A DNA stretch of 64,000 nucleotides from an uncultured Candidatus Saccharibacteria bacterium (lineage in GTDB: Bacteria; Patescibacteriota; Saccharimonadia; UBA4664; CAZOQX01): the NCBI GenBank assembly GCA_964582465.1, contig CAZOQX010000003.1, positions 1,115-65,114 of the forward strand, in the 5' to 3' direction. The notes beneath the pieces were generated by a model, which was given only the letters and a program-made list of their open reading frames with translations, did not search any database and had not been told where the DNA came from. Positions 6,749 to 25,402 of this stretch are shown piece after piece. The first letter of the stretch is position 1; each line of letters opens with the position of its first letter. The position numbers and the translations under genes are program-made.

Positions 6749-7180
6749 CTATCTCACCGGGAATAAACCGGCGCCTTCGGTACAAACCGAAAGTTCGAAG
6801 TCACGATTATTGGCAGATTGAGCATAGAGTACTTCATATCTACTGGCATCAGTCGTAGCCGCACAGGCACCCGTCAAGTTTCCTGACGCAACATAAGTAC
6901 CAGCGGTAAAAGTATACTTGCCACCCAGCTTTGCGTCTAAGGTCGTCACGGCCGTTTTAGCAGCCGCATTGCTCGCAGGATAACTCGCGCCGTTATTAGC
7001 CGCATACTGATCAAGCAAGCCACCCATGCGGCCAGCCTCAGTCTTACGCGTAGTGTCACGTTGGGACTTCTGGGCACTGGCAATGGCGTTAAAGACCACC
7101 AGTATGATCAGGGCAGCGATGGCTAGCACGATCACTACTTCGATTAATGTAAACCCTTTAGATTTTTTCAATTCTCTCAC
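6749..7180 (-). CDS. pilA: Type IV major pilin, paralog 1
   Basis: 143 aa. The start MRELKKSKGFTLIEVVIVLAIAALIILVVFNAIASAQ... is a canonical type IVa pilin N-terminus. Confidence 0.7.
   Translation of the reverse strand: MRELKKSKGFTLIEVVIVLAIAALIILVVFNAIASAQKSQRDTTRKTEAGRMGGLLDQYAANNGASYPASNAAAKTAVTTLDAKLGGKYTFTAGTYVASGNLTGACAATTDASRYEVLYAQSANNRDFELSVCTEGAGLFPVR
7021..7160. repeat. Direct repeat copy A, about 140 nt, near-identical to 7551-7690. It covers the conserved 5' coding block of the pilin paralogs.
   Basis: By eye, ...gcggccagcctcagtcttacgcgtagtgtcacgttgggacttctgggcactggcaatggcgttaaagaccac... recurs with only a few substitutions. Confidence 0.8.
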
Positions 7181-7271: not shown

Positions 7272-7712
7272 TTATTTAACTTGGACTAGTCCGCCACCTT
7301 CTGTACAAACACTCAACTCGTAGTCGCGGTTCGTTGCTCCATTTGTGACATATAACACCTCATATATCGCAGCCGTTGTTGGGCTAGTAGCACAGGCACC
7401 GGTTAAGGCCCCATTGGCGACGTAGGTGCCTGCTGTAAAGGTGTACTTAGCACCTAGTTTAGAGTCAAGACCGGTTACAGCCGTCTTGGCTAAGGCAGTG
7501 GTAGATGGATATACACCAGAAGCATTAGACGCGGATTGTTCTAGTAGACTCACAATGCGGCCAGCCTCAGTCTTACGCGTAGTGTCACGTTGGGACTTCT
7601 GGGCACTGGCAATGGCGTTAAAGACCACTAGCAGGATCAGGGCAGCGATGGCTAACACGATCACTACTTCGATTAATGTAAACCCTTTAGCCTTATTTAG
7701 TTTCCGTAACAT
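7272..7712 (-). CDS. pilA: Type IV major pilin, paralog 2. I chose the internal start MLRKLNKAKGFTLIE; the track ORF extends to 7784.
   Basis: Homologous to paralog 1, with an identical GFTLIEVVIVLAIAAL...QKSQRDTTRKTEAGR core and a divergent C-terminal half. The start at 7712 gives 147 aa, matching paralog 1 in length. Confidence 0.65.
   Translation of the reverse strand: MLRKLNKAKGFTLIEVVIVLAIAALILLVVFNAIASAQKSQRDTTRKTEAGRIVSLLEQSASNASGVYPSTTALAKTAVTGLDSKLGAKYTFTAGTYVANGALTGACATSPTTAAIYEVLYVTNGATNRDYELSVCTEGGGLVQVK
7551..7690. repeat. Direct repeat copy B of the pilin 5' coding block
   Basis: See 7021-7160. Confidence 0.8.
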
Positions 7713-7754
7713 AATATTTGTGCTCACCTTTCTATTACTTATAGTGCTTACGTT

Positions 7755-7783
7755 TAATTTAAAGTCTTTCAGCTCAGTTGTCA
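7755..7783 (-). promoter_or_regulatory. Sigma70-like promoter candidate for the pilin genes
   Basis: The minus strand reads TTGACA-(17 nt)-TAAATT about 45 nt upstream of the 7712 start, with a GGTGA Shine-Dalgarno-like element in between. Confidence 0.35.
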
Positions 7784-7790
7784 ACCTCCC

Positions 7791-10520: not shown

Positions 10521-13500
10521 TTAATTACTTGGTACCGCCTCATTCCACACCGCCGGAGCACTATTAAGAGTACTGAACCATGGCGGCGGGTTGCTCACCA
10601 CCGTGCCATCGTAGACGAAGTTCTCGGATGGGTTGATGTCAGGATCTAGTTGTGTGCCAGGCTGGCGCTGTAAGTTGAATGATGAGGCAATTATCAAACC
10701 GTTGAGTGTCAGCGGTTGGTCGACATTGACGCGATCATTGTTCCCCACTAAGCTGGTGCCCGAGCTAAATGCACCATTCGCAAAGTAGTTGCCGGCTAGA
10801 TTACTCACGCAATCGTCGGAATTGAAACACTTAACGATGATATTGCCGGTCACAATGAATCCAACTGACGTCTGCTGGCTGCGATCAGTACCGCTATAGC
10901 CGTTATAAGAGACATCACCGTTTACAATTAGATCGCCATTTACAACTATTGTGCCCGCTCCGCCTGCAAAACTGAGCGCGGTATGGGTAGCAGGATCGCC
11001 TAAGTTCAAATTACCATTAGCATAATAGGTTCTCCCGTTGGCGAGCGTAAAGGTGTCGTCCATCGTATAGTAATTTTGCCCGCTGACCTTAGTGAGGTTC
11101 GTGGCCTTCCCCACAATATTATTATTGTAATTGGTCTGCCCCCAGATGGCGTAAATCGGATTATTAGCATTGTCATACGTTCCCGAATTGCCGGTGTTGA
11201 GAGCGTAGGGGCTGAAGGCTTTTCCTTGACTAGGATGACCCGATACGCCTGGGCTGGTGAAGTCAAAGTGATTAATTAGTCCTTTGGTGTACAAGAACGC
11301 CGATTGCGCCAGGGAGTGCGCGAAGTAGCTATCGATCTTCCCGCCAGCGTAAACGTCGGAATTTTGGAAAGATATGGTCGGATTATAAATGGTAGCAACC
11401 CCGCGGTCGGGCTTGGCAGCACTATCCGATTCTATACCGTAAAGCACATTATCGGGCTTGGAGGCGCTCACGTCGCGCGATCCGAGGTCTCGGGTGTGTC
11501 CCTTAAAGGTACTCTCGTAGCGAGCGCGCTGGACGTTACTTGACCAACCCCAGTCGACATTGACTAAACCGTCCTTGGTGCCATCGTATGTTACGTCGCA
11601 TTCCCCATCGAAGTTAGCGGGACAATTGGCCGTATCTTCCTGAAGTAATTGGCCAGCGCCGGTGTAGTACTTGGTGTTGGCGGCACTCGCGGTCAGGTTA
11701 AAGAAACCGCCGGGCCAATAGGTTGCCGTCACATTTTGAGTGCCAGACTTGGTGTCATCAAAGCCCGTGATTACCGGCTCCACCACCTGCGTGTCATAAA
11801 TCATGCGATTCGTATAAAGCGGATCGGCGCGATCAAATGCCCAGCTTACTCCAGCGCCGTGAGCAAGCGGTGTCGAATCCCCCGAGTTATCCATCGTAGT
11901 AACGGTGGTCGAGTCCTGCCAATAAGTGGGGAGGTCGGCCGTTGCTGGGTCATTATCACCATCGGCCCAAGTCGGGTTGGTCTTGTTAAATCCCCCACCA
12001 AAGTAACTATCTTGGCCTAACACTTGACCTTGAATCGTGGCATTGGGATTCAGCCACCCCCACTTGGTCTCTCTTCTGCCCAAGTAGTAGGTAAAGTTGC
12101 TGACGATAAATTTATTGCTAATCTTTAGCGTCACGGTGGTACCAGCAGTCCCGTCGGCAGTTCCAGGGCTATAGGTGAAGCCGGCCGCGCCGCTGGCATT
12201 GGTTGCACCCCCCAACTTCACGCCGATCGGCGTGTCGTGAGCAGCAGCGTTTTTGGTTGGATACCAGTGGCCCTTGTCGTCTAGTTGCGACCAATTCACG
12301 TACTCATCCCACTTAAGCTGCGCATTATCGACGTGTGTAATGCCCGTAGTGTAGGTCAACGGTTCTTGGTTATTGGCCTTATATTTGAGTGTGCCGTTGT
12401 CCTGACTGTCCTGCAAAAGCGACGTCACAGTCGTAGTGCCCCACGATTTCAGTGGCAAATCACTTACACCCAAGCCGCCCTTCAAAATATTGTCTGGATC
12501 AAGCGTAAAGTTAGTCGGTACATCAGTATTGTCCGAATCAGCCTGATTGGTGAAGTTAGCATCGTTAATTGAGGCACTATACGTACTCGGGAAAAGTTGT
12601 GGATTTCGAACGTTATCCCAAGTGTTGGGCTTTGGCGAGTTATCGGCCTTAACTGGTCCAGCACTATTATCGGGCAATGACTGCCGCGGATCCGCTCCCT
12701 TATTGGTATCGCGCTGCAATAGATTTTTGTCGATGCCGCCCTGCCACTGAACGCCGTGGTCGCCCACCACTGAGACATCATCTGAGTTGTTAGCCGGCGA
12801 TTTAATTCCTTGGGCGTTAATATGGAGGTTAGAGATCTCGACAGCGTTGATGTGATTACTGCCGCCGCAGTCCCATACTTGTTTGCCGTCAGTATAAAAG
12901 TAGCTGCCGTCTTGGCAGGCGATGCCGCCGTGGCGGGGGTCAAAAGCATTGCTATCGCTGGTCGAGAAGTTCACGTCGCGAATGGGTTGCCACTTATTGC
13001 CACCAGGAGTGGACGAGCCGGACGTCACGGTGCCGTCGTTCTTCGGTACGTAAGCGAGCGGGATGCGCTGCAAGCAACCGGTGGCCGCAAACGAAGCCGG
13101 GCAACCAATCTCCGCCTTGTTATTAAAGACACTCATGCTGTTTAGGTCCGTATCGAGATTTTCGCTGGTGGTATTGGTATCCCCAAAAGCCGATCCCCAA
13201 GTACCAGCCAGCCAGAAGTTAGTCGAATGATCGTTGCCTTGGTATGTTCCTTGATCGGTTTTGCCGCGATTGCCCGCATCCGGCCACATGTAGGCCTGCA
13301 GGTTAAAGAGCGGATATTTAAAGTTATCGCGCACGAACTGTAAAACGGGGTGAATGAAGTTGGCTAAGTAGACTTTCGCTGGCGTGTTTAGAGATTTAAT
13401 GGTGATAGCGCAGGTGTCGCCGAATAGGTCATATACACCGGCCACGAGACTAGGCGTACCCATCTGGAAGGTTAGGCGATAGACGCCGGGGGTCGCTGGT

Positions 13501-14993
13501 GTTACATAGCTCGCATTCGAGAAAGTAGTAGTCTGATTGGGGCCGATAGGTGGACTATTAATCGACTGAGTCGTAGGTCCAGTTACAGGAGTGTCATCAG
13601 TACGAACTAGCTTATACGAGCTGGTCCAAGCCACATCGCCGGTATTCTTTAATGACTGGGTAATTTTTACAGTCGACCCCGGCGCGACAGGGTTCGGAAT
13701 AGAGCTTTGGATGCTTTGGCAGTTTGAGTTCTGGGAGCAAGTATCGTTGTAGGTTTCACTATCGTACGGGATCCAAATTTGCGGATCGTTATTGTAGCTA
13801 ATGTTGTGCCATACCCACATAAACTGCATACTATACGCCGCGGCAAAGTCTAGAGTTTTAGTTTCACCGTTGCCGCCAATAAATTCAGGGTATTTATCCG
13901 GATTCTGATCGGCAACTGCCGTCTTTACATCATAGCCCCGCCGATGAGCACTTCCCCCATTGAAAATATCTGGAGTTATCTTCCACGGCCCGGGACTAGT
14001 CCCGCCAACGTCGCGATAATATAAATCAAAGTAGATTTGTGGGTTAACCGGAGAAGAGTCGCTAGCCCCGTCCGCATCCTGCCACCTCAGCTCGTTATAA
14101 AGAATAGGATAAACCTCTTTTTGCGACAAGCAGGGGGTTGCAAACGGAATATAGAGGTCGTAGGTTCCACTCGTGTTGGTCGTATCAAGCGTGATAGGCT
14201 GATCACCTTTATCAAACCTCGCCCACAAGCCCACACGGTTCCCACCACAAGGGAAATTTTGATTTGCCCCCTGATTATTTACATCTTGTTGCATGCAACC
14301 ATCAGCTTGTGTCCCGGAGCTATAAGCTTGGATCCTGAAGTTCGCCCACCGGTCGTGACCAGGCTCAACGACCACACTGTCATCTGTGTTCATCGCCGAA
14401 ATATACCCAACTGCAAGTCGGTATACATAGTATCCGTTGCTCTTATTACTAGGCGATGATAAACATCCGCCATCGCCGTAGTTGTCAGAGTCGGTATCAA
14501 ACTTAATAGGGTCGCTCCACTGACCCGGGCTTGTAAAGAATACGGACCCTTGCTTGCCCTGAGAGATACATTTTTTGGCGTTATTATTATCGTCGAAGAT
14601 TTTGTAGGATTCGTCAGCGTTGGCGGGGGTAAAGAAAAATTTCATGCTTTTGAAATCTTGGTCAGAAGAACTTCCAGTACCTGTCCGAATTCTTATGTAG
14701 GTATTGTGGGGATCTTTGAAGTATAGCTTGATGTAAGATACGGGCGTATCGATAGCTCGACCTGTAGTGCCAGCATTGCATTGGTGGTTTGGATTGGTAA
14801 AGTAGCCTGAACATGCTTGGCTAACATCGACTTGAATATCGCCGTTCCCTCCATCGACTGTTTGATTCGGTAGAACATCATTTACTCTTACAAAGCTAAA
14901 GTCCGGGGCAGCCTGGGCTGGCTTAACCAAACTGAACAGGTTAACCGGCAGAAGCACCGCCAAAATAGTTAGCCACCTAATAAGCTTAGCCAT
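10521..14993 (-). CDS. Giant secreted protein (1490 aa) with a signal peptide, of unknown function. It is a candidate surface/adhesin protein at the head of the pilus operon.
   Basis: Uninterrupted 4.47-kb ORF. The N-terminus MAKLIRWLTILAVLLPVNLFSLVKPAQAAP is a Sec signal peptide. It is rich in Gly/Asn/Thr/Ser/Asp. The C-terminal NGDLIVNGDVSYNGY...IVTGNIIV segment resembles beta-helix repeats. Confidence 0.7.
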   Translation of the reverse strand: MAKLIRWLTILAVLLPVNLFSLVKPAQAAPDFSFVRVNDVLPNQTVDGGNGDIQVDVSQACSGYFTNPNHQCNAGTTGRAIDTPVSYIKLYFKDPHNTYIRIRTGTGSSSDQDFKSMKFFFTPANADESYKIFDDNNNAKKCISQGKQGSVFFTSPGQWSDPIKFDTDSDNYGDGGCLSSPSNKSNGYYVYRLAVGYISAMNTDDSVVVEPGHDRWANFRIQAYSSGTQADGCMQQDVNNQGANQNFPCGGNRVGLWARFDKGDQPITLDTTNTSGTYDLYIPFATPCLSQKEVYPILYNELRWQDADGASDSSPVNPQIYFDLYYRDVGGTSPGPWKITPDIFNGGSAHRRGYDVKTAVADQNPDKYPEFIGGNGETKTLDFAAAYSMQFMWVWHNISYNNDPQIWIPYDSETYNDTCSQNSNCQSIQSSIPNPVAPGSTVKITQSLKNTGDVAWTSSYKLVRTDDTPVTGPTTQSINSPPIGPNQTTTFSNASYVTPATPGVYRLTFQMGTPSLVAGVYDLFGDTCAITIKSLNTPAKVYLANFIHPVLQFVRDNFKYPLFNLQAYMWPDAGNRGKTDQGTYQGNDHSTNFWLAGTWGSAFGDTNTTSENLDTDLNSMSVFNNKAEIGCPASFAATGCLQRIPLAYVPKNDGTVTSGSSTPGGNKWQPIRDVNFSTSDSNAFDPRHGGIACQDGSYFYTDGKQVWDCGGSNHINAVEISNLHINAQGIKSPANNSDDVSVVGDHGVQWQGGIDKNLLQRDTNKGADPRQSLPDNSAGPVKADNSPKPNTWDNVRNPQLFPSTYSASINDANFTNQADSDNTDVPTNFTLDPDNILKGGLGVSDLPLKSWGTTTVTSLLQDSQDNGTLKYKANNQEPLTYTTGITHVDNAQLKWDEYVNWSQLDDKGHWYPTKNAAAHDTPIGVKLGGATNASGAAGFTYSPGTADGTAGTTVTLKISNKFIVSNFTYYLGRRETKWGWLNPNATIQGQVLGQDSYFGGGFNKTNPTWADGDNDPATADLPTYWQDSTTVTTMDNSGDSTPLAHGAGVSWAFDRADPLYTNRMIYDTQVVEPVITGFDDTKSGTQNVTATYWPGGFFNLTASAANTKYYTGAGQLLQEDTANCPANFDGECDVTYDGTKDGLVNVDWGWSSNVQRARYESTFKGHTRDLGSRDVSASKPDNVLYGIESDSAAKPDRGVATIYNPTISFQNSDVYAGGKIDSYFAHSLAQSAFLYTKGLINHFDFTSPGVSGHPSQGKAFSPYALNTGNSGTYDNANNPIYAIWGQTNYNNNIVGKATNLTKVSGQNYYTMDDTFTLANGRTYYANGNLNLGDPATHTALSFAGGAGTIVVNGDLIVNGDVSYNGYSGTDRSQQTSVGFIVTGNIIVKCFNSDDCVSNLAGNYFANGAFSSGTSLVGNNDRVNVDQPLTLNGLIIASSFNLQRQPGTQLDPDINPSENFVYDGTVVSNPPPWFSTLNSAPAVWNEAVPSN

Positions 14994-15043: not shown

Positions 15044-15076
15044 TTGACATCATGACTGCTCCGGTAGACTATTAAT
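15044..15076 (+). promoter_or_regulatory. Weak sigma70-like promoter candidate upstream of the first secreted paralog
   Basis: A TTGACA at 15044-15049, with poorly spaced TAnnnT-like elements after it. The -10 and the true start codon (15075, 15081 or 15102) are ambiguous. Confidence 0.2.
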
Positions 15077-15707
15077 GTTAATGGCTAAGCGCAAAAGGAA
15101 AATGACCAGACTACTCCCATCGCTCGGCAAGCTCTCTAACCTTTCTTTCGTAGCGATCGTATGTGGCGTGGTGACTTTTGGAATACTTGCCTACTACGTG
15201 GTACACGCGCTCTCTTATCACAGAATCGGCATACTACAAGAACACGGCCAAACTTTTTACTACACCAACCCCACAACCGGCCACGTAACTGCTGAAAAAG
15301 TTATTCATCCTGATCAAGGTGATGGCGGTAAACTGTCATGTAGCAATACTTGCTGGCTCTCGGCTAAAGCAAGTTCAACCTTCCAAGACGCCTGGACTGG
15401 TCCAGGGTTTCACGTAGCGTCCAGCGGCGTAAACTCAACTAACAAGAATCAACGCGCGTGCTTTGTTATTCGGGTTGCTCCAGGTGCATCCTCAGCAATA
15501 GCAGGAATATCCGTCGATGGGACACCAGTAGGACAATCTACATCTGTTACAAAAGATTTCAAGTGTTATTGGCTGAACTACACAGTCAAAGCAGGCCAGA
15601 CCGGCCTCAGCTGGACCATCCATGTTCAGTCTGGGCAAGTTCAGATTGACCGTGTAGAACTGTGGCAGGGCGGTGCTAGTGGCAAGAGTGTTTTTGTAGA
15701 ACTGTAG
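15075..15707 (+). CDS. Membrane-anchored/secreted Cys-containing protein, paralog A (start uncertain: 15075 or 15102)
   Basis: 210-aa ORF with an N-terminal TM/signal anchor (LSFVAIVCGVVTFGILAYYVVHA). Its C-terminal ~125 aa are identical to paralog B. Confidence 0.6.
   Translation: MLMAKRKRKMTRLLPSLGKLSNLSFVAIVCGVVTFGILAYYVVHALSYHRIGILQEHGQTFYYTNPTTGHVTAEKVIHPDQGDGGKLSCSNTCWLSAKASSTFQDAWTGPGFHVASSGVNSTNKNQRACFVIRVAPGASSAIAGISVDGTPVGQSTSVTKDFKCYWLNYTVKAGQTGLSWTIHVQSGQVQIDRVELWQGGASGKSVFVEL
15334..15706. repeat. Direct repeat copy A, about 373 nt, apparently 100% identical to 15955-16327. It is the 3' half of the tandem paralogs.
   Basis: Compared by eye from tgtcatgtagcaatacttgctggctctcgg... 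through ...gtttttgtagaa without a mismatch. Confidence 0.8.
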
Positions 15708-15755
15708 CTTGCTTTTGCCGTAAACATGTGATACAGTTGCATTCAACTAAACACT

Positions 15756-16334
15756 ATGTTGAAGTTTCGTTTTTCTATACTAACAGTCTACCTGGCCAGC
15801 ATAATTGCTGGCTTCTTAGCTTGGAGCTTCCCTGCCCAGGCTATTACGTATCACAAAGTCTCCACTCTCCAGGAACACTCAACTTTCTCTTATACAAATG
15901 ATGGGAAAACGATTAAAGAGAAGGTTCAGCATCCTGACTGGAGGGACGGCGGGCACATGTCATGTAGCAATACTTGCTGGCTCTCGGCTAAAGCAAGTTC
16001 AACCTTCCAAGACGCCTGGACTGGTCCAGGGTTTCACGTAGCGTCCAGCGGCGTAAACTCAACTAACAAGAATCAACGCGCGTGCTTTGTTATTCGGGTT
16101 GCTCCAGGTGCATCCTCAGCAATAGCAGGAATATCCGTCGATGGGACACCAGTAGGACAATCTACATCTGTTACAAAAGATTTCAAGTGTTATTGGCTGA
16201 ACTACACAGTCAAAGCAGGCCAGACCGGCCTCAGCTGGACCATCCATGTTCAGTCTGGGCAAGTTCAGATTGACCGTGTAGAACTGTGGCAGGGCGGTGC
16301 TAGTGGCAAGAGTGTTTTTGTAGAATTACAGTAA
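15756..16334 (+). CDS. Secreted Cys-containing protein, paralog B (signal peptide)
   Basis: 192 aa. The start MLKFRFSILTVYLASIIAGFLAWSFPAQA is a signal peptide. The C-terminal half is identical to paralog A and the N-terminal half is about 50% identical. Confidence 0.6.
   Translation: MLKFRFSILTVYLASIIAGFLAWSFPAQAITYHKVSTLQEHSTFSYTNDGKTIKEKVQHPDWRDGGHMSCSNTCWLSAKASSTFQDAWTGPGFHVASSGVNSTNKNQRACFVIRVAPGASSAIAGISVDGTPVGQSTSVTKDFKCYWLNYTVKAGQTGLSWTIHVQSGQVQIDRVELWQGGASGKSVFVELQ
15955..16327. repeat. Direct repeat copy B (373 nt)
   Basis: See 15334-15706. Confidence 0.8.
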
Positions 16335-16335
16335 A

Positions 16336-17490
16336 CTAAACCACTACCTCTTTAGGCCTGTCGCGCAAATTATAATCCGAACTCATCACATAGCCGTAGG
16401 CGCCGGCGTTCAGTATTGCTAAAATCTCTCCTTCTTTCGGCATGGTAAGCTCCCGCTCCTGGGCCAATAAATCGCCAGACTCACACACATTCCCAGCTAC
16501 ATACACCACCGCCTGCTCGCCCTCTACTCTACTTGCATTCATAATTTGGTGATATGAGCCGTACATGGCCGGTCGAATTAAATGATTAAAGCCCGTGTTT
16601 ACGCCTACAAATGTGCGATCCGGGTTCTTTTTTATATCCGTCACTTTGGTGAGCAAAAAGCCGGTCTCGGCCACCAAATAACGCCCGGGCTCGAGCCGCA
16701 TTGCAACCGGCGAGCCATACTCCCGCGTAAATTTCGCCATCAGCTCGCTCGCCTGCTTACCGAATTCGGCTACGTCCAGGGGTTGCTCGCTAGGTCGATA
16801 CGGCACGCCCAAACCGCCGCCAAAATCTAAATACTTCAACCCCTCAAACCCCCGTGCCGTTTCGAGTAATACACTCATGGCGTGAATTAGAATAGCGACA
16901 TCTAACACGTTCGATCCAATGTGCTGATGCAAGCCCACGATCTTTAGGCCGTGTTTTTTCGCGATTGCTTTGGCCTCGTCGAGCTGCGAAATATCAATCC
17001 CAAATTTACTAGCCGGGCCGCCGGTAATCACATGAGCGTGGTGACCGGCCCCAATTCCTTGGTTAACCCGAATCCCCACTTCCTTTCCCAGCCCTAAGCT
17101 TCCCCACTTTTCCAGCTGGCCAAGCGAATCGAGGTTTACGGCCATTCCCTGCTCGGCCAACCATGCGAGCTCGCTCGCATCAATATTGCTACAGGTAAAT
17201 ACCAGGCGGTCAGTCGTAAAACCGGCCGCCTTTGCCCGCTCGACTTCGCCGGGACTGACGCATTCGGCACTAGCCCCTAGTTCACGAAGTTGCTTTAAAA
17301 CTTCCAAATTAGAATTAGCCTTAACCGCAAAATGGATCTGTGCCGGTTGATAAGAAATCGCCTGCTCGAGCGTCTGGTAGCGCTCCTTGATTGTCTCTAA
17401 CTCATAAACATAGAGCGGCGTGCCGTATTTTGTCGCGAGCTTGGTCGCCAGGTCCCCGCTGATATCGAGTTTATTGTCGCGTACCTGCAT
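16336..17490 (-). CDS. lysA: Diaminopimelate decarboxylase (PLP-dependent Orn/DAP/Arg decarboxylase family)
   Basis: 384 aa with ...GTPLYVYELETIKERYQTLEQA...IHFAVKANSNLEVLK... (PLP-binding K in the FAVKAN motif) and a C-terminal beta-sandwich with ...CESGD. Confidence 0.75.
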   Translation of the reverse strand: MQVRDNKLDISGDLATKLATKYGTPLYVYELETIKERYQTLEQAISYQPAQIHFAVKANSNLEVLKQLRELGASAECVSPGEVERAKAAGFTTDRLVFTCSNIDASELAWLAEQGMAVNLDSLGQLEKWGSLGLGKEVGIRVNQGIGAGHHAHVITGGPASKFGIDISQLDEAKAIAKKHGLKIVGLHQHIGSNVLDVAILIHAMSVLLETARGFEGLKYLDFGGGLGVPYRPSEQPLDVAEFGKQASELMAKFTREYGSPVAMRLEPGRYLVAETGFLLTKVTDIKKNPDRTFVGVNTGFNHLIRPAMYGSYHQIMNASRVEGEQAVVYVAGNVCESGDLLAQERELTMPKEGEILAILNAGAYGYVMSSDYNLRDRPKEVVV

Positions 17491-17522: not shown

Positions 17523-18383
17523 CTAATAAACGTCGACGGCAATATGAATGTGGTCGCGGTGATCAGCTTCCGTGGCCGGGTCATAGTGATGAGGCACACC
17601 TTGGTCGAGATTAAGGGGCGAGTTCCAGTAGATTAGCTCATCCACATGATACTCGGCGCGATGATTAAAGACGTAAGGCATGATCGAGACATGCTGCTCC
17701 TGGTTGGCAATATCAACCGCTAGACCGCGGTAATGGAAGCTATTTGTCACATGATGACCATTAGTGAGGTACGCTATCACAATCGGAATGCCACGATTTG
17801 CCATGTCGTTCACGAGTTTGAGCAAGTCCGCGCTCACACGCACGCATTGGCCAGTGGCTTCCACGGGTGCACACTCCCCCCGTGCCACTCGCTGCATAAT
17901 ACCTACCGTCTGCGGCTGAATCGAAATGTGCGGATTCTGCAAAATTAGCTGGGCGTAATAGGCGGCATTATTTACAGGTTGCGTTAAGCTCGCACAACTC
18001 TTGCCCTGGGTGCGGTAAATGGCACACCAAGTGTTGAGGTTAGCAACGCCAATGTTTGCCGCACTTTGCCCCAGTGGCTTGTTACCTAGCCCGCGGTGAT
18101 TGGGATCAAGCTGGTAATAAATCAGAGCTGATTTGGTTGGCCAATCGAAGTAGCCATTAATTTTGAGCGCCTGCCTGGCAGCAAAGGATACGCTTCCGGA
18201 ATTCTTGAGGTGCCACTGTAAATTCTTCACGCAGACGCCTGTGCTGTTCATGCTAAGCACTGGCTTAACGGGACAGGCAAAGGGATCTTGGCCAGTCGCA
18301 TGCGCTGGGGCAACTGCAATAAGCGGCATCACTACCGCAACCAGCGCTACTATAATTTTTGCAAACTTCAACTTCATAGCCAA
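17523..18383 (-). CDS. Secreted cell-wall hydrolase: a peptidoglycan-binding domain plus a peptidase M15 (VanY/D-Ala-D-Ala carboxypeptidase-like) domain
   Basis: Signal peptide MAMKLKFAKIIVALVAVVMPLIAVAPAHA. Residues ...NLQWHLKNSG...ARQALKINGYFDWPTKSALIYYQ resemble PG-binding domain 1. SFHYRGLAVDI matches the M15 SxHxxGxAxD zinc motif, and DHRDHIHIA supplies the second His cluster. Confidence 0.5.
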   Translation of the reverse strand: MAMKLKFAKIIVALVAVVMPLIAVAPAHATGQDPFACPVKPVLSMNSTGVCVKNLQWHLKNSGSVSFAARQALKINGYFDWPTKSALIYYQLDPNHRGLGNKPLGQSAANIGVANLNTWCAIYRTQGKSCASLTQPVNNAAYYAQLILQNPHISIQPQTVGIMQRVARGECAPVEATGQCVRVSADLLKLVNDMANRGIPIVIAYLTNGHHVTNSFHYRGLAVDIANQEQHVSIMPYVFNHRAEYHVDELIYWNSPLNLDQGVPHHYDPATEADHRDHIHIAVDVY

Positions 18384-18564: not shown

Positions 18565-18966
18565 CTACTGGCTAATCGGACCGAGGCCTTGCAGCAAATG
18601 CTGGCGTACCTGTAGATGCTGATCAAATTGGCTCAGCCGCTCCTTGATCTGGCTATCGCTTAGGCCCTTGCCCCTAAGCTTAGATGTCAGATCATCTCGA
18701 AGCTTCTGGTGGAATTGATCAAGCGTCATTCCATGCTCCTGCACAATTTGCTGAAGAGTTTTGGTCTTCAGCTCACTCCGCAGGTCAGCTGGCTTCACGC
18801 CTAGCACACTGGCTACTCCATCAAGCGGATGCCGATGCATTTGCCGCATCGAAGTCATCCCAGGATGTGCAGGCCGGTTTGAGCTCGCGAAAGAGCTCGC
18901 TCCCACCATAGCCGCAGCTCCAACTAAGATCCCGCCGGCCATTAAAGCAATTTTTTGTTTAACCAC
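18565..18966 (-). CDS. Hypothetical secreted protein (133 aa)
   Basis: N-terminal hydrophobic signal (ALMAGGILVGAAAMVGASSFA) followed by a hydrophilic helical body. I recognise no motif. Confidence 0.45.
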   Translation of the reverse strand: MVKQKIALMAGGILVGAAAMVGASSFASSNRPAHPGMTSMRQMHRHPLDGVASVLGVKPADLRSELKTKTLQQIVQEHGMTLDQFHQKLRDDLTSKLRGKGLSDSQIKERLSQFDQHLQVRQHLLQGLGPISQ

Positions 18967-19075: not shown

Positions 19076-19471
19076 CTACTTGGAAACCGCACAGGCCTGA
19101 GCGAAGGAGGCGTGGTAGCCTTTCTTCGCCGCGAGGTGGGACGCCCAAGGGTACATGTCGCCAGACCGGCGAGTCAGCAGGACGTTGTAGTCCTCCTGGG
19201 CGCCTGCCGGGTCGGTGACGAAGTACACATAGGCCCGAACCGGCCGGTAGCTGCTAGACACGGGCCAGGTCAAGCGTTGCCGCCCATCCCTCCACCCGAT
19301 CTGGATTTTGACCGGACCAGTGAACTTGTAGCGATACGGCCGGTGCTGCCGTGTGGGCTTCGCGATACCATGAATCTGGTTACCACGACAGACCTTGCCG
19401 CTCGCCTGAGCAGGCAAAGCGCCCATCGCCACGACGGACACAATCACTGCCAACCAAATGAAACGCCGCAT
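19076..19471 (-). CDS. Hypothetical secreted protein (131 aa) in a high-GC islet
   Basis: Signal peptide MRRFIWLAVIVSVVAMGALPAQASG. The local G+C is visibly higher than the flanks. No recognisable domain. Confidence 0.5.
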   Translation of the reverse strand: MRRFIWLAVIVSVVAMGALPAQASGKVCRGNQIHGIAKPTRQHRPYRYKFTGPVKIQIGWRDGRQRLTWPVSSSYRPVRAYVYFVTDPAGAQEDYNVLLTRRSGDMYPWASHLAAKKGYHASFAQACAVSK

Positions 19472-19564
19472 TCGACGGCTCCTCTCGGTGGGATTGTCAA
19501 TACTTAACCATGATGTGTGCGTGCTGTCAATGACAGTAGCTCCGGCTCTGTTAAAATTACTGCT

Positions 19565-23765: not shown

Positions 23766-24371
23766 TTAGTTGTCCTTCGTAAACCGATCGACAACTTTTT
23801 TGATACTTTCGTAAGTAAACCCTTTGCGCCCCAAGTGCGCCATTAGCTTTTGACGATCGGGGTACTTGACCATCAGTTTTTGGCGCTCAACTAGATCTGC
23901 CAAGACTTCTTCCTCATCATGTCCCCCCAGCGCCTCTTCAATCTCGTCAGTTCCCAGGCCTTTTTGGCGCAATTCCTGCACAAGCTGTAAACGCGAGCGT
24001 GGGCGCAGCAGACGGCGGCTTTCTACCCAGCTTGCAGCAAAATCGCTATCGTTCAGGAGGCTCCGTGCCACCAGCTCACGGACAATGTCGGCTGTTTGCT
24101 CCTTTGAATAGCCCTTTCTCTCGAGGTATTGCAGCACCTCATCTTGACTGCGTGGCCGAATGGCAAGATACGATAGCGCCTTTTCCAAAGCCTTGTTCTT
24201 TTCGGCCGCTGACTTAAAGCGTTCAAGTTCCTCAGCGCCAACTTCACTCCCCTCACGCAGACCACTGTCCGCCAGAAACAAAGCGGAGCAAGCAAACGAG
24301 TATTTACCGTCCACGAAGATTGAATAGCGTTCGCGGGCCGCTTGCTTCTTGATCTTGGTAATTTGCGGCAT
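23766..24371 (-). CDS. recX: RecA regulator RecX
   Basis: 201-aa helical-repeat protein immediately downstream of recA. The ...ALSYLAIRPRSQDEVLQYLERKGYS... repeats are typical of RecX. Confidence 0.75.
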   Translation of the reverse strand: MPQITKIKKQAARERYSIFVDGKYSFACSALFLADSGLREGSEVGAEELERFKSAAEKNKALEKALSYLAIRPRSQDEVLQYLERKGYSKEQTADIVRELVARSLLNDSDFAASWVESRRLLRPRSRLQLVQELRQKGLGTDEIEEALGGHDEEEVLADLVERQKLMVKYPDRQKLMAHLGRKGFTYESIKKVVDRFTKDN

Positions 24372-24373
24372 TA

Positions 24374-25402
24374 CTAAGTAGTTTGGGCTTTTTTGCGTAC
24401 GGCGCCTGCAAGTTCTTCCAGGATCTTGGGATTATCCTTCAGATATTGCTTGGCCGCCTCGCGTCCTTGGGCGATCTTCTCTTCTTTGTACTCGTACCAA
24501 GCGCCTGTTTTTTGCACTAACTCGTGCTTAACCGCCAGATCGAGCACATCACCAGCGCGCGAGATGCCCTCGTTAAACATAATGTCGAACTCGGCCACCT
24601 TGAAAGGCGGTGCGACCTTATTTTTAACTACCTTGACCTTTACGTGATTCCCTACTGGCGTATCAGCGTCCTTAATTTGCTCGGTACGGCGGATGTCCAA
24701 ACGCACCGAAGCATAGAATTTCAAAGCGTTACCGCCGGGCGTAGTTTCCGGATTGCCGAACATAACGCCGATCTTCATGCGCAGCTGGTTGATGAAAATG
24801 ACAGTAGTTTTGGACTTGCTGATGACTCCAGTGAGTTTGCGTAAAGCTTGAGACATTAGCCGCGCCTGCAGACCCACGTGCGCATCGCCCATGTCGCCCT
24901 CAATTTCAGCCCGGGGCACCAAGGCTGCGACAGAATCAATAATCACGACATCAACAGCGTTTGAGCGCACCAAAGTTTCGGCGATTTCTAAAGCCTGCTC
25001 GCCTGTATCGGGCTGCGAGATTAGCAGATCGTCGAGATTAACCCCAATTCTTTTAGCGTACTCGGGATCCAGAGCGTGCTCTGCATCCACAAAAGCCGCC
25101 ATGCCGCCCGATTTCTGGGTGCTTGCTACCACATGCAGCGCCAGCGTGGTTTTTCCGCTCGATTCCGGCCCATAAATTTCGATAATTCGGCCCTTCGGTA
25201 TACCTCCACCGAGAGCGAGATCCAGCGACAAACTACCCGTAGGAATAGTTTCGACATCAATTTTGTGCGACTCGCCCAGGCGCATAATAGCGCCCTTACC
25301 AAATTGCTTTTCGATTTGCTCGACCGCAAGACCAATCGCTTGCATGCGCGAGGATCTATCGCCCTTTTGTTCCACGATTTTCTCCGCTACTGCTGTTGCC
25401 AT
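24374..25402 (-). CDS. recA: Recombinase RecA
   Basis: ...[38 protein letters not shown]... Confidence 0.95.

Follow-up and report, generated by a model that had tools for sequence, protein, structure and literature searches.

Two adjacent genes for small exported proteins lie on the forward strand of the window, by which we mean the whole 64-kb stretch of DNA that was analysed (Table 1). Both are full length, each with its own start codon and its own export sequence, and their products share 79% amino acid identity overall. The product of gene 1 is found in the public record (P0002) with 208 residues and a start at the ATG at 15081, and that of gene 2 as a 192-residue protein (P0001) that is 100% identical. 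As judged by sequence reading and hydropathy, both products have a positively charged N-terminal region and a hydrophobic core, as expected for export, with a cleavage-type motif in gene 2, and each has four cysteines in the mature part. Their description in the initial annotation as small cysteine-containing extracytoplasmic proteins is in keeping with their sequences.

The two N-termini differ in design. In gene 1, KRKRK is followed by a hydrophobic stretch of ~21 residues, with a hydropathy maximum of 2.65 at residues 25–39. This segment looks more like an anchor than like a cleaved signal, a long signal peptide being the alternative, and the gene 1 product probably stays attached to the membrane through it. 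The N-terminus of gene 2 reads MLKFRFSILTVYLASIIAGFLAWSFPAQA followed by ITYH, with a signal peptide that ends in AQA before ITYHK and would be of the classical cleavable Sec type. Between the spacer that separates the genes and the sequence upstream of gene 1 no similarity was detected. Neither the spacer nor the point where gene 2 meets lysA showed a terminator-like site. The two genes are probably co-transcribed.

Table 1. Coordinates of the paralogous genes, their parts and other features in the window.
Feature	Position	Strand	Description
1490-aa protein gene	10521–14993	−	First gene of the type IV pilus operon
Gene 1	15075–15707	+	ORF, 210 aa from ATG 15075; basic N-terminus, hydrophobic segment, ~160-aa module
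Gene 1, diverged 5′ part	15075–15333	+	Export/anchor sequence and first ~39 module residues; 52% nucleotide identity to the gene 2 counterpart
Block copy 1	15334–15701	+	Proposed gene-conversion tract; codons SCSNTCW...SVFVE, including all four mature cysteines
Spacer between the genes	15708–15755		48 nt, GC 0.375
Gene 2	15756–16334	+	ORF, 192 aa; signal peptide and ~160-aa module
Gene 2, diverged 5′ part	15756–15957	+	Signal peptide and first ~39 module residues
Block copy 2	15958–16325	+	368 nt, same letters as copy 1
recX	23766–24371		Adjoins recA
recA	24374–25402	−	Pfam RecA, E = 1.6e-141; putative role in conversion

Gene 1 is transcribed divergently from the gene for the 1490-residue protein, with an 81-bp spacer between them. 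That gene is followed in the pilus operon by PilN, PilO, a small ORF, a PilC-like ORF (a call made by sequence reading), five prepilin-type genes with N-methylation motifs, a 401-aa ORF, a PpiC-type isomerase and PilM. On the other side, gene 2 converges on lysA, the two stop codons being one base apart, and past lysA lies a gene for a 286-aa exported protein with H..D and HxH motifs. The pair had been placed next to a giant pilus-linked protein and a cell-wall hydrolase. The former neighbour was correctly recognised, and it heads the pilus operon; the latter designation is not secured by the 286-aa protein, which has only sub-threshold Pfam matches to Hedgehog-type/LAS peptidase and peptidoglycan-binding models. 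The remainder of the window is occupied by housekeeping genes, namely recA, recX, ftsK and those for RNase J, PNPase, polA, rpoD, dnaG, groEL, a Mur ligase and FemAB, together with a class I (I/L/M/V-type) aminoacyl-tRNA synthetase.

The 3′ parts of the two genes are identical over 368 nt

A base-by-base comparison at an offset of 624 nt gave 368 identities in 368 positions as one unbroken run, and both a repeat finder and blastn returned the same 368-nt block. At its 5′ edge the block begins with the third base of the Leu/Met codon that precedes SCSNTCW. At its 3′ edge it ends after GTA GAA (V-E), where the following codon is CTG in one gene and TTA in the other, and the stop codon of gene 1 lies 6 nt beyond this edge. 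Outside the block, and only there, the 3′ set of codons shows changes, namely in the boundary codon and in the final codon. In both genes all four cysteines of the mature protein are encoded inside it. No third copy of the block or of either gene was found in the 64-kb window, at the DNA or the protein level, by blastn and tblastn with both genes as queries. No inverted repeats were found in the region of the block, and a mobile element as its origin was rejected on that ground.

Upstream of the block the two genes can still be aligned, at a far lower level of identity. Over 66 aligned codon pairs they share 52% of nucleotides and 41% of amino acids (codon alignment); the proportion of synonymous differences (pS) is 0.74, which corresponds to a Jukes-Cantor (JC)-corrected dS of about 3.3 and hence to saturation, and dN is 0.59. 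Restricting the comparison to the 37 codons of the mature part upstream of the block gives 59% nucleotide and 57% amino acid identity, with a pS of 0.81 and a dN of 0.40. The longest run common to both genes upstream of the 5′ limit of the block is about 8 nt. At this level of divergence one would expect some 65 synonymous differences within the block, where none is seen, and the chance of 368 matches in succession at a per-site identity of 59% is ~1e-85. In the sequence as given, then, the step in identity is genuine and far exceeds what chance would produce.

These figures bear out what had been noted for the pair by eye, namely nucleotide-identical 3′ halves joined to 5′ halves that are only ~50% identical and yet alignable. 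The extent of the block needed some correction. Its start at 15334 was exact, and the length of ~373 nt and the end at 15706 were 5 nt too long; the second interval, 15955–16327, had a start that was off by 3 nt and an end that was off by 2 nt.

The diverged 5′ parts are homologous. Gene 2 and a distant relative, P0005, which we describe below, share the YHR, LQEH, HPD and GG motifs of the gene 1 5′ part, and the fusion of an unrelated 5′ part to one of the genes was ruled out for that reason. Saturation of silent sites in 5′ parts that are related both to one another and to P0005 marks the duplication as old. The 3′ 368 nt, in which there is not a single difference, were then made identical recently.

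Each mature protein is one module of a family with a single convincing relative

The mature proteins each consist of one module of ~160 residues with four cysteines. Neither had a match in Pfam, NCBIfam, PHROGs or PADLOC (for Pfam and NCBIfam even at E = 0.1), including any surface-adhesin or host-interaction family in these collections, and a profile search against PDB sequences gave nothing below E = 0.07. A word-indexed search of 5.8 billion clustered proteins returned the two proteins themselves and nothing else, whether the query was one sequence or a profile of three. The only convincing relative came from an exhaustive HMMER search of 1.84 billion representatives: P0005, at 41% identity and E = 8e-15 by phmmer, and at 35% identity and a pairwise E of 3e-23 by BLASTP. 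This protein of 594 residues has an N-terminal β-propeller of the PQQ_2/SBBP type, and its C-terminal 160 residues are the matching module. It was found in JGI metagenomes 3300049005 and 3300048998, on a contig of 66–68% GC that also carries genes of fatty-acid metabolism (acyl-CoA dehydrogenase and thiolase), and it therefore comes from an unrelated organism.

The alignment with P0005 spans the mature protein end to end, from ITYHKVSTLQE (VTYHRVGTIQE in P0005) to VQIDRVELWQGGA (VQIDKVVLYQGGA). It covers the divergent N-terminal ~39 residues of the paralogues, where YH+V..[LI]QE, HPD and GG are conserved, and it includes further shared motifs (W.GPG.H, ACFV[IV]R and VQID+V.L[WY]QGGA); the segment best conserved with P0005 is the part of the module encoded by the identical block. 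Two differences between P0005 and the pair are that its module is a single C-terminal addition to a β-propeller, not a stand-alone tandem pair, and that only two of the four cysteines are retained there.

Because the whole mature protein aligns with P0005, it is to be regarded as one autonomous module, and the identity boundary, at about mature residue 40, falls within this module and does not coincide with a domain junction. The initial annotation had divided the proteins into a C-terminal domain that evolves in concert and a separate N-terminal part for anchoring or recognition that diversifies, an arrangement typical of surface or host-interaction proteins. The position of the boundary lends no support to such a division. 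Nor is there a sign of positive selection in the 5′ part, where dN (0.40–0.59) is well below a saturated dS, as expected of old divergence, and the comparison with host-interaction proteins finds no counterpart among the family matches.

Other hits in the HMMER search were giant proteins with cadherin or InlB-B repeats. We rejected them as homologues, as the resemblance is at the level of motifs: the best of these matches aligns over a cadherin repeat boundary, the remaining ones are limited to a strand motif of ~50 residues (V.VDGT.VG), and the Pfam models of cadherin and InlB-B repeats do not match the query. Two AlphaFold runs predicted an all-β structure of about ten strands, with a pLDDT of only 46–48. 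Foldseek against the PDB gave no match at E ≤ 0.001, and the weak matches that it did return were to jelly-roll/CBM35-like structures, with TM-scores of at most 0.39. Membership in the CBM35/jelly-roll, cadherin or InlB-B-repeat Ig-like families is thus indicated neither by a profile nor by a significant fold match. A β-sandwich binding module is no more than a reasonable guess.

Relatives of the locus were equally scarce. No orthologues of the pair were found in the 5.8 billion clustered proteins, the 1.84 billion representatives, the GTDB species genomes, the JGI metagenomes or IMG/VR, and a metagenome scan with the neighbouring 1490-residue protein as the query found nothing. The closest relatives of lysA are only 53–61% identical and non-syntenic, and are labelled as Chloroflexota, Nomurabacteria and others. 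The collections searched held no close relative of the source organism. Judged by these sequence searches, the exported module appears to be essentially absent from public protein space, where it is represented by the two paralogues and one distant domain.

An independent assembly breaks inside the repeat

An independent view of the repeat is given by the Logan assembly of run SRR9179560, which is k-mer based. Logan assemblies are built with k = 31. One of its contigs (L044, 2347 nt) approaches the pair from the lysA side and is 100% identical to positions 18642–16296 of the window. It stops exactly 30 nt inside block copy 2, and these last 30 nt match copy 1 as well. A stop at 30 nt, which is k−1, is what a repeat would cause, because a de Bruijn graph branches where a shared sequence continues in two ways. 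In this assembly lysA and pilN are recorded as whole genes and neither paralogue is complete. As a whole the assembly is fragmentary and consists of contigs of some 2 kb, so that the break at that base is strong evidence for a true repeat branch, not proof of one. The perfect identity of the two copies may be exaggerated, as an assembler may pop small bubbles between near-identical copies in a metagenome-type contig.

Discussion

We propose that genes 1 and 2 are old tandem paralogues whose 3′ parts were recently homogenised by gene conversion of the RecA type, and we would give this explanation a probability of roughly three in four. What is seen at the locus is what gene conversion predicts: a block of high identity that begins and ends abruptly amid homologous sequence of far lower identity, a synonymous divergence of zero in the block as against a pS of 0.74–0.81 upstream, and genes for homologous recombination (recA and recX) in the same window. 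The recent conversion tract suggested in the initial annotation is accordingly supported, an abrupt change from saturated divergence to 100% identity being what such a tract between older tandem paralogues would produce. An old tandem duplication would have given rise to two genes for an exported, cysteine-containing, all-β module of ~160 residues. The two copies, on one chromosome or on sister chromosomes, would later have undergone strand invasion mediated by RecA and then non-reciprocal copying or repair, in which the 3′ 368 nt of one gene overwrote those of the other and wiped out the differences between them. The 3′ limit of such a tract would be the end of homology, 6 nt short of the stop codon of gene 1, and its 5′ limit would fall inside the coding region. 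The copies upstream of that limit, with a longest shared run of ~8 nt, are too diverged for efficient strand exchange, so that any later conversion would not extend past this block and the step would stay sharp; a boundary of this kind, once set, would tend to persist and to sharpen further. Conversion is also the simplest process that yields recent identity without a change in copy number.

The window contains one more such pair, the tandem pilin genes at 6749–7180 and 7272–7784. These paralogues have 136 nt in common with 3 mismatches, including an exact run of 74 nt, and an identity of about 70% elsewhere. This suggests that conversion recurs in the genome, with the reservation that the N-terminal helix of pilins is also under strong constraint at the protein level.

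As the main rival explanation, the identical block of genes 1 and 2 could be imagined to have arisen in the assembly, if a single true gene, or two genes with differing 3′ parts, had been collapsed or bubble-popped into one consensus that was then threaded twice. The setting is one that would favour such an error: the contig is of the metagenome style and has no close relatives, an exact repeat of 368 nt exceeds the usual k-mers and short reads, and the Logan assembly passes through neither gene. We nevertheless think an artefact unlikely. On the contig each copy of the block has a left and a right context of its own, different from those of the other copy, and all four junctions read as sensible gene parts (a start, an export signal, the start of a diverged module, and stops). 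A strain bubble would appear as alternative 5′ parts that run into one block, not as a block that continues through a spacer into a new gene start, and a mixture of strains would have its branch point at the block's 5′ edge, not at the 3′ edge beside lysA. It is at the latter edge that L044, coming from lysA, ends k−1 nt into the block, a strong sign that the reads hold at least two continuations there, as a tandem arrangement would predict. Even the collapse of a few SNPs would leave the contrast to the saturated divergence upstream. A recent duplication of the whole gene, after which the 5′ part and upstream region of one copy were swapped for an imported diverged allele, would leave the same pattern of ends as conversion. 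It would also explain why the export architectures differ, one being long and anchor-like and the other a classical signal peptide. This history strikes us as quite improbable, given that it takes two events, one of which needs a homology in the 5′ flank that is invisible today (the sequence 5′ of gene 1 and that of the spacer show no similarity), and that there is neither a known donor lineage nor any other member of the family near this organism. Its variant, in which the 5′ parts diverged extremely fast, is excluded because synonymous sites upstream are saturated and the block is unchanged.

The remaining alternative to conversion is that selection at the nucleotide level keeps the block identical, because it contains an RNA, a regulatory element or an overlapping gene that is required in two copies. 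Hexamers resembling minus-strand promoters do occur inside both copies, and short ORFs in alternative frames overlap the block. The promoter-like sites number 3, which is in line with the 1.8 ± 1.1 expected from shuffled sequences, and the overlapping ORFs are duplicated trivially because the underlying DNA is. An embedded RNA was rejected, as the region has no Rfam match, and it also lacks inverted repeats. Such selection would moreover rarely erase every synonymous difference across 122 codons, and we give it next to no weight.

Partial conversion between paralogues for exported proteins has well-studied precedents. In Helicobacter pylori, the outer-membrane adhesin paralogues babA/babB and homA/homB have 3′ segments that are homogenised and 5′ segments that are divergent, through intragenomic conversion that depends on RecA (Pride and Blaser, 2002; reviewed in PMC3960876). 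The likeness to the present pair lies in exported paralogues with uniform 3′ and divergent 5′ segments in one genome. The Helicobacter proteins, however, have no sequence match to this pair, and their loci are dispersed whereas the genes here are in tandem. Conversion in Helicobacter has moreover been followed across many strains and linked to an altered adhesion phenotype, and the present case is a single genome known from sequence alone. Long-lasting concerted evolution of duplicated genes has been surveyed across prokaryotes (PMC6053082), and duplicated loci of M. tuberculosis, such as a PE_PGRS gene pair, undergo gene conversion (PMC1762029; PMC12046097). In these cases, tandem pairs included, non-reciprocal recombination homogenises part of a duplicate pair, as we propose here. 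They rest on phylogenies of multiple genomes, whereas our case rests on a step of identity within one genome, in an uncharacterised family.

The region around the pair is concerned with type IV pili, and the comparison with pilin variation has to be considered as well. In cassette-based antigenic variation of the Neisseria pilE/pilS type, conversion moves a segment between copies of a gene for a surface protein. An exchange of segments between homologous copies is common to both situations. Here, however, both copies are complete and look like expressed genes, not like silent, truncated cassettes, and there are only two of them in 64 kb. Antigenic variation from silent cassettes therefore does not describe this pair, which has no truncated donor and in which the exchanged segment is the conserved core of the module, not its variable part. 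An exchange of the conserved core would lower diversity.

If the block is real, the locus is a clean single-genome case of partial conversion between tandem paralogues, from an uncultured bacterium of a kind that has been poorly sampled. For annotation, it follows that the two genes should not be merged, or taken for an assembly duplicate, without a check, and the same block calls for caution in variant calling and binning. It raises no new question of mechanism, because exported paralogues whose 3′ parts evolve in concert have been amply documented. The mechanism itself is an ordinary one, and no functional lead comes from the protein family, which is uncharacterised. As to what the pair may do, one could go as far as to picture the anchored and the released form of an undescribed extracellular binding domain with a new fold, co-regulated with the pilus operon from the 81-bp divergent promoter region, in which recurrent conversion is selected because it keeps the binding cores identical and leaves the targeting parts different. 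We offer this as a speculative idea with little chance of proving right. Were it true, the two genes would form a small self-maintaining system that presents binding of the same ligand at two locations, with a part in attachment between cells or to cell surfaces.

Independent assembly across the repeat

The Logan contig L044 (run SRR9179560) offers an independent assembly of the region, and one of its ends lies at 16296, where the k-mer assembly stops exactly 30 nt into copy 2 of the repeat, the second copy of the identical block shared by genes 1 and 2. Its other end falls at 18642, within a 133-aa ORF (18565-18966), and no repeat in the window matches the sequence there. This second break could stem from differences between strains, from low coverage or from a repeat located elsewhere.

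A single distant homologue

The only distant homologue of the gene 1/2 module is P0005, in which the module forms a C-terminal appendage on a beta-propeller protein encoded on a high-GC contig. In both loci carrying P0005, L042 and L043, the gene is followed downstream by one for a 307-aa protein with no Pfam match.

Genes flanking the tandem pair

Only one base separates the end of gene 2 (16334) from that of the convergent lysA (16336), and no terminator-like structure was predicted at their junction; the two transcripts would overlap. The closest relatives of lysA are only 53-61% identical, carry the record labels Chloroflexota, Nomurabacteria, Spirochaetota and Bathyarchaeota, and have no gene neighbourhood in common with the window lysA. 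Two explanations fit: no relative of the organism has been sampled, or transfer has occurred in the history of lysA.

The 286-aa exported protein had been called a cell-wall hydrolase in the initial annotation. Its only Pfam matches, HH_signal (E = 0.015) and PG_binding_1 (E = 0.044), are both below threshold. Read by eye, the sequence shows two motifs, H-x6-D and H-x-H, of the kind that characterises LAS-type zinc peptidases. Two 131-aa ORFs are near-exact antisense partners of each other; the one on the minus strand has a start resembling a signal peptide and no Pfam match. For the 1490-aa exported protein, the sole Pfam match is one Ig-like N_BRCA1_IG domain (residues 436-527). A metagenome pattern scan returned no relatives of this protein, and no entry on record matches it exactly.

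Coordinates and strands of the features discussed (window positions unless a locus is named)
Feature	Position	Strand	Remark
Two neighbouring prepilin-type genes	6749-7180 and 7272-7784	-	
1490-aa exported protein	10521-14993	-	First gene of type IV pilus operon
lysA	16336-17490	-	Relatives at L001, L045-L047
286-aa exported protein	17523-18383	-	
131-aa ORF	19076-19471	-	
131-aa ORF	19112-19507	+	
P0005	L042 3033-4817; L043 1536-3320		

A shared block in the tandem pilin genes

The two prepilin-type genes share a block of 136 nt (7026-7161 vs. 7555-7690) with 3 mismatches and a longest exact run of 74 nt, covering the N-terminal helix region, whereas outside this block the pair is ~70% identical. 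Gene conversion between tandem paralogues may thus have left another, shorter tract in the window.
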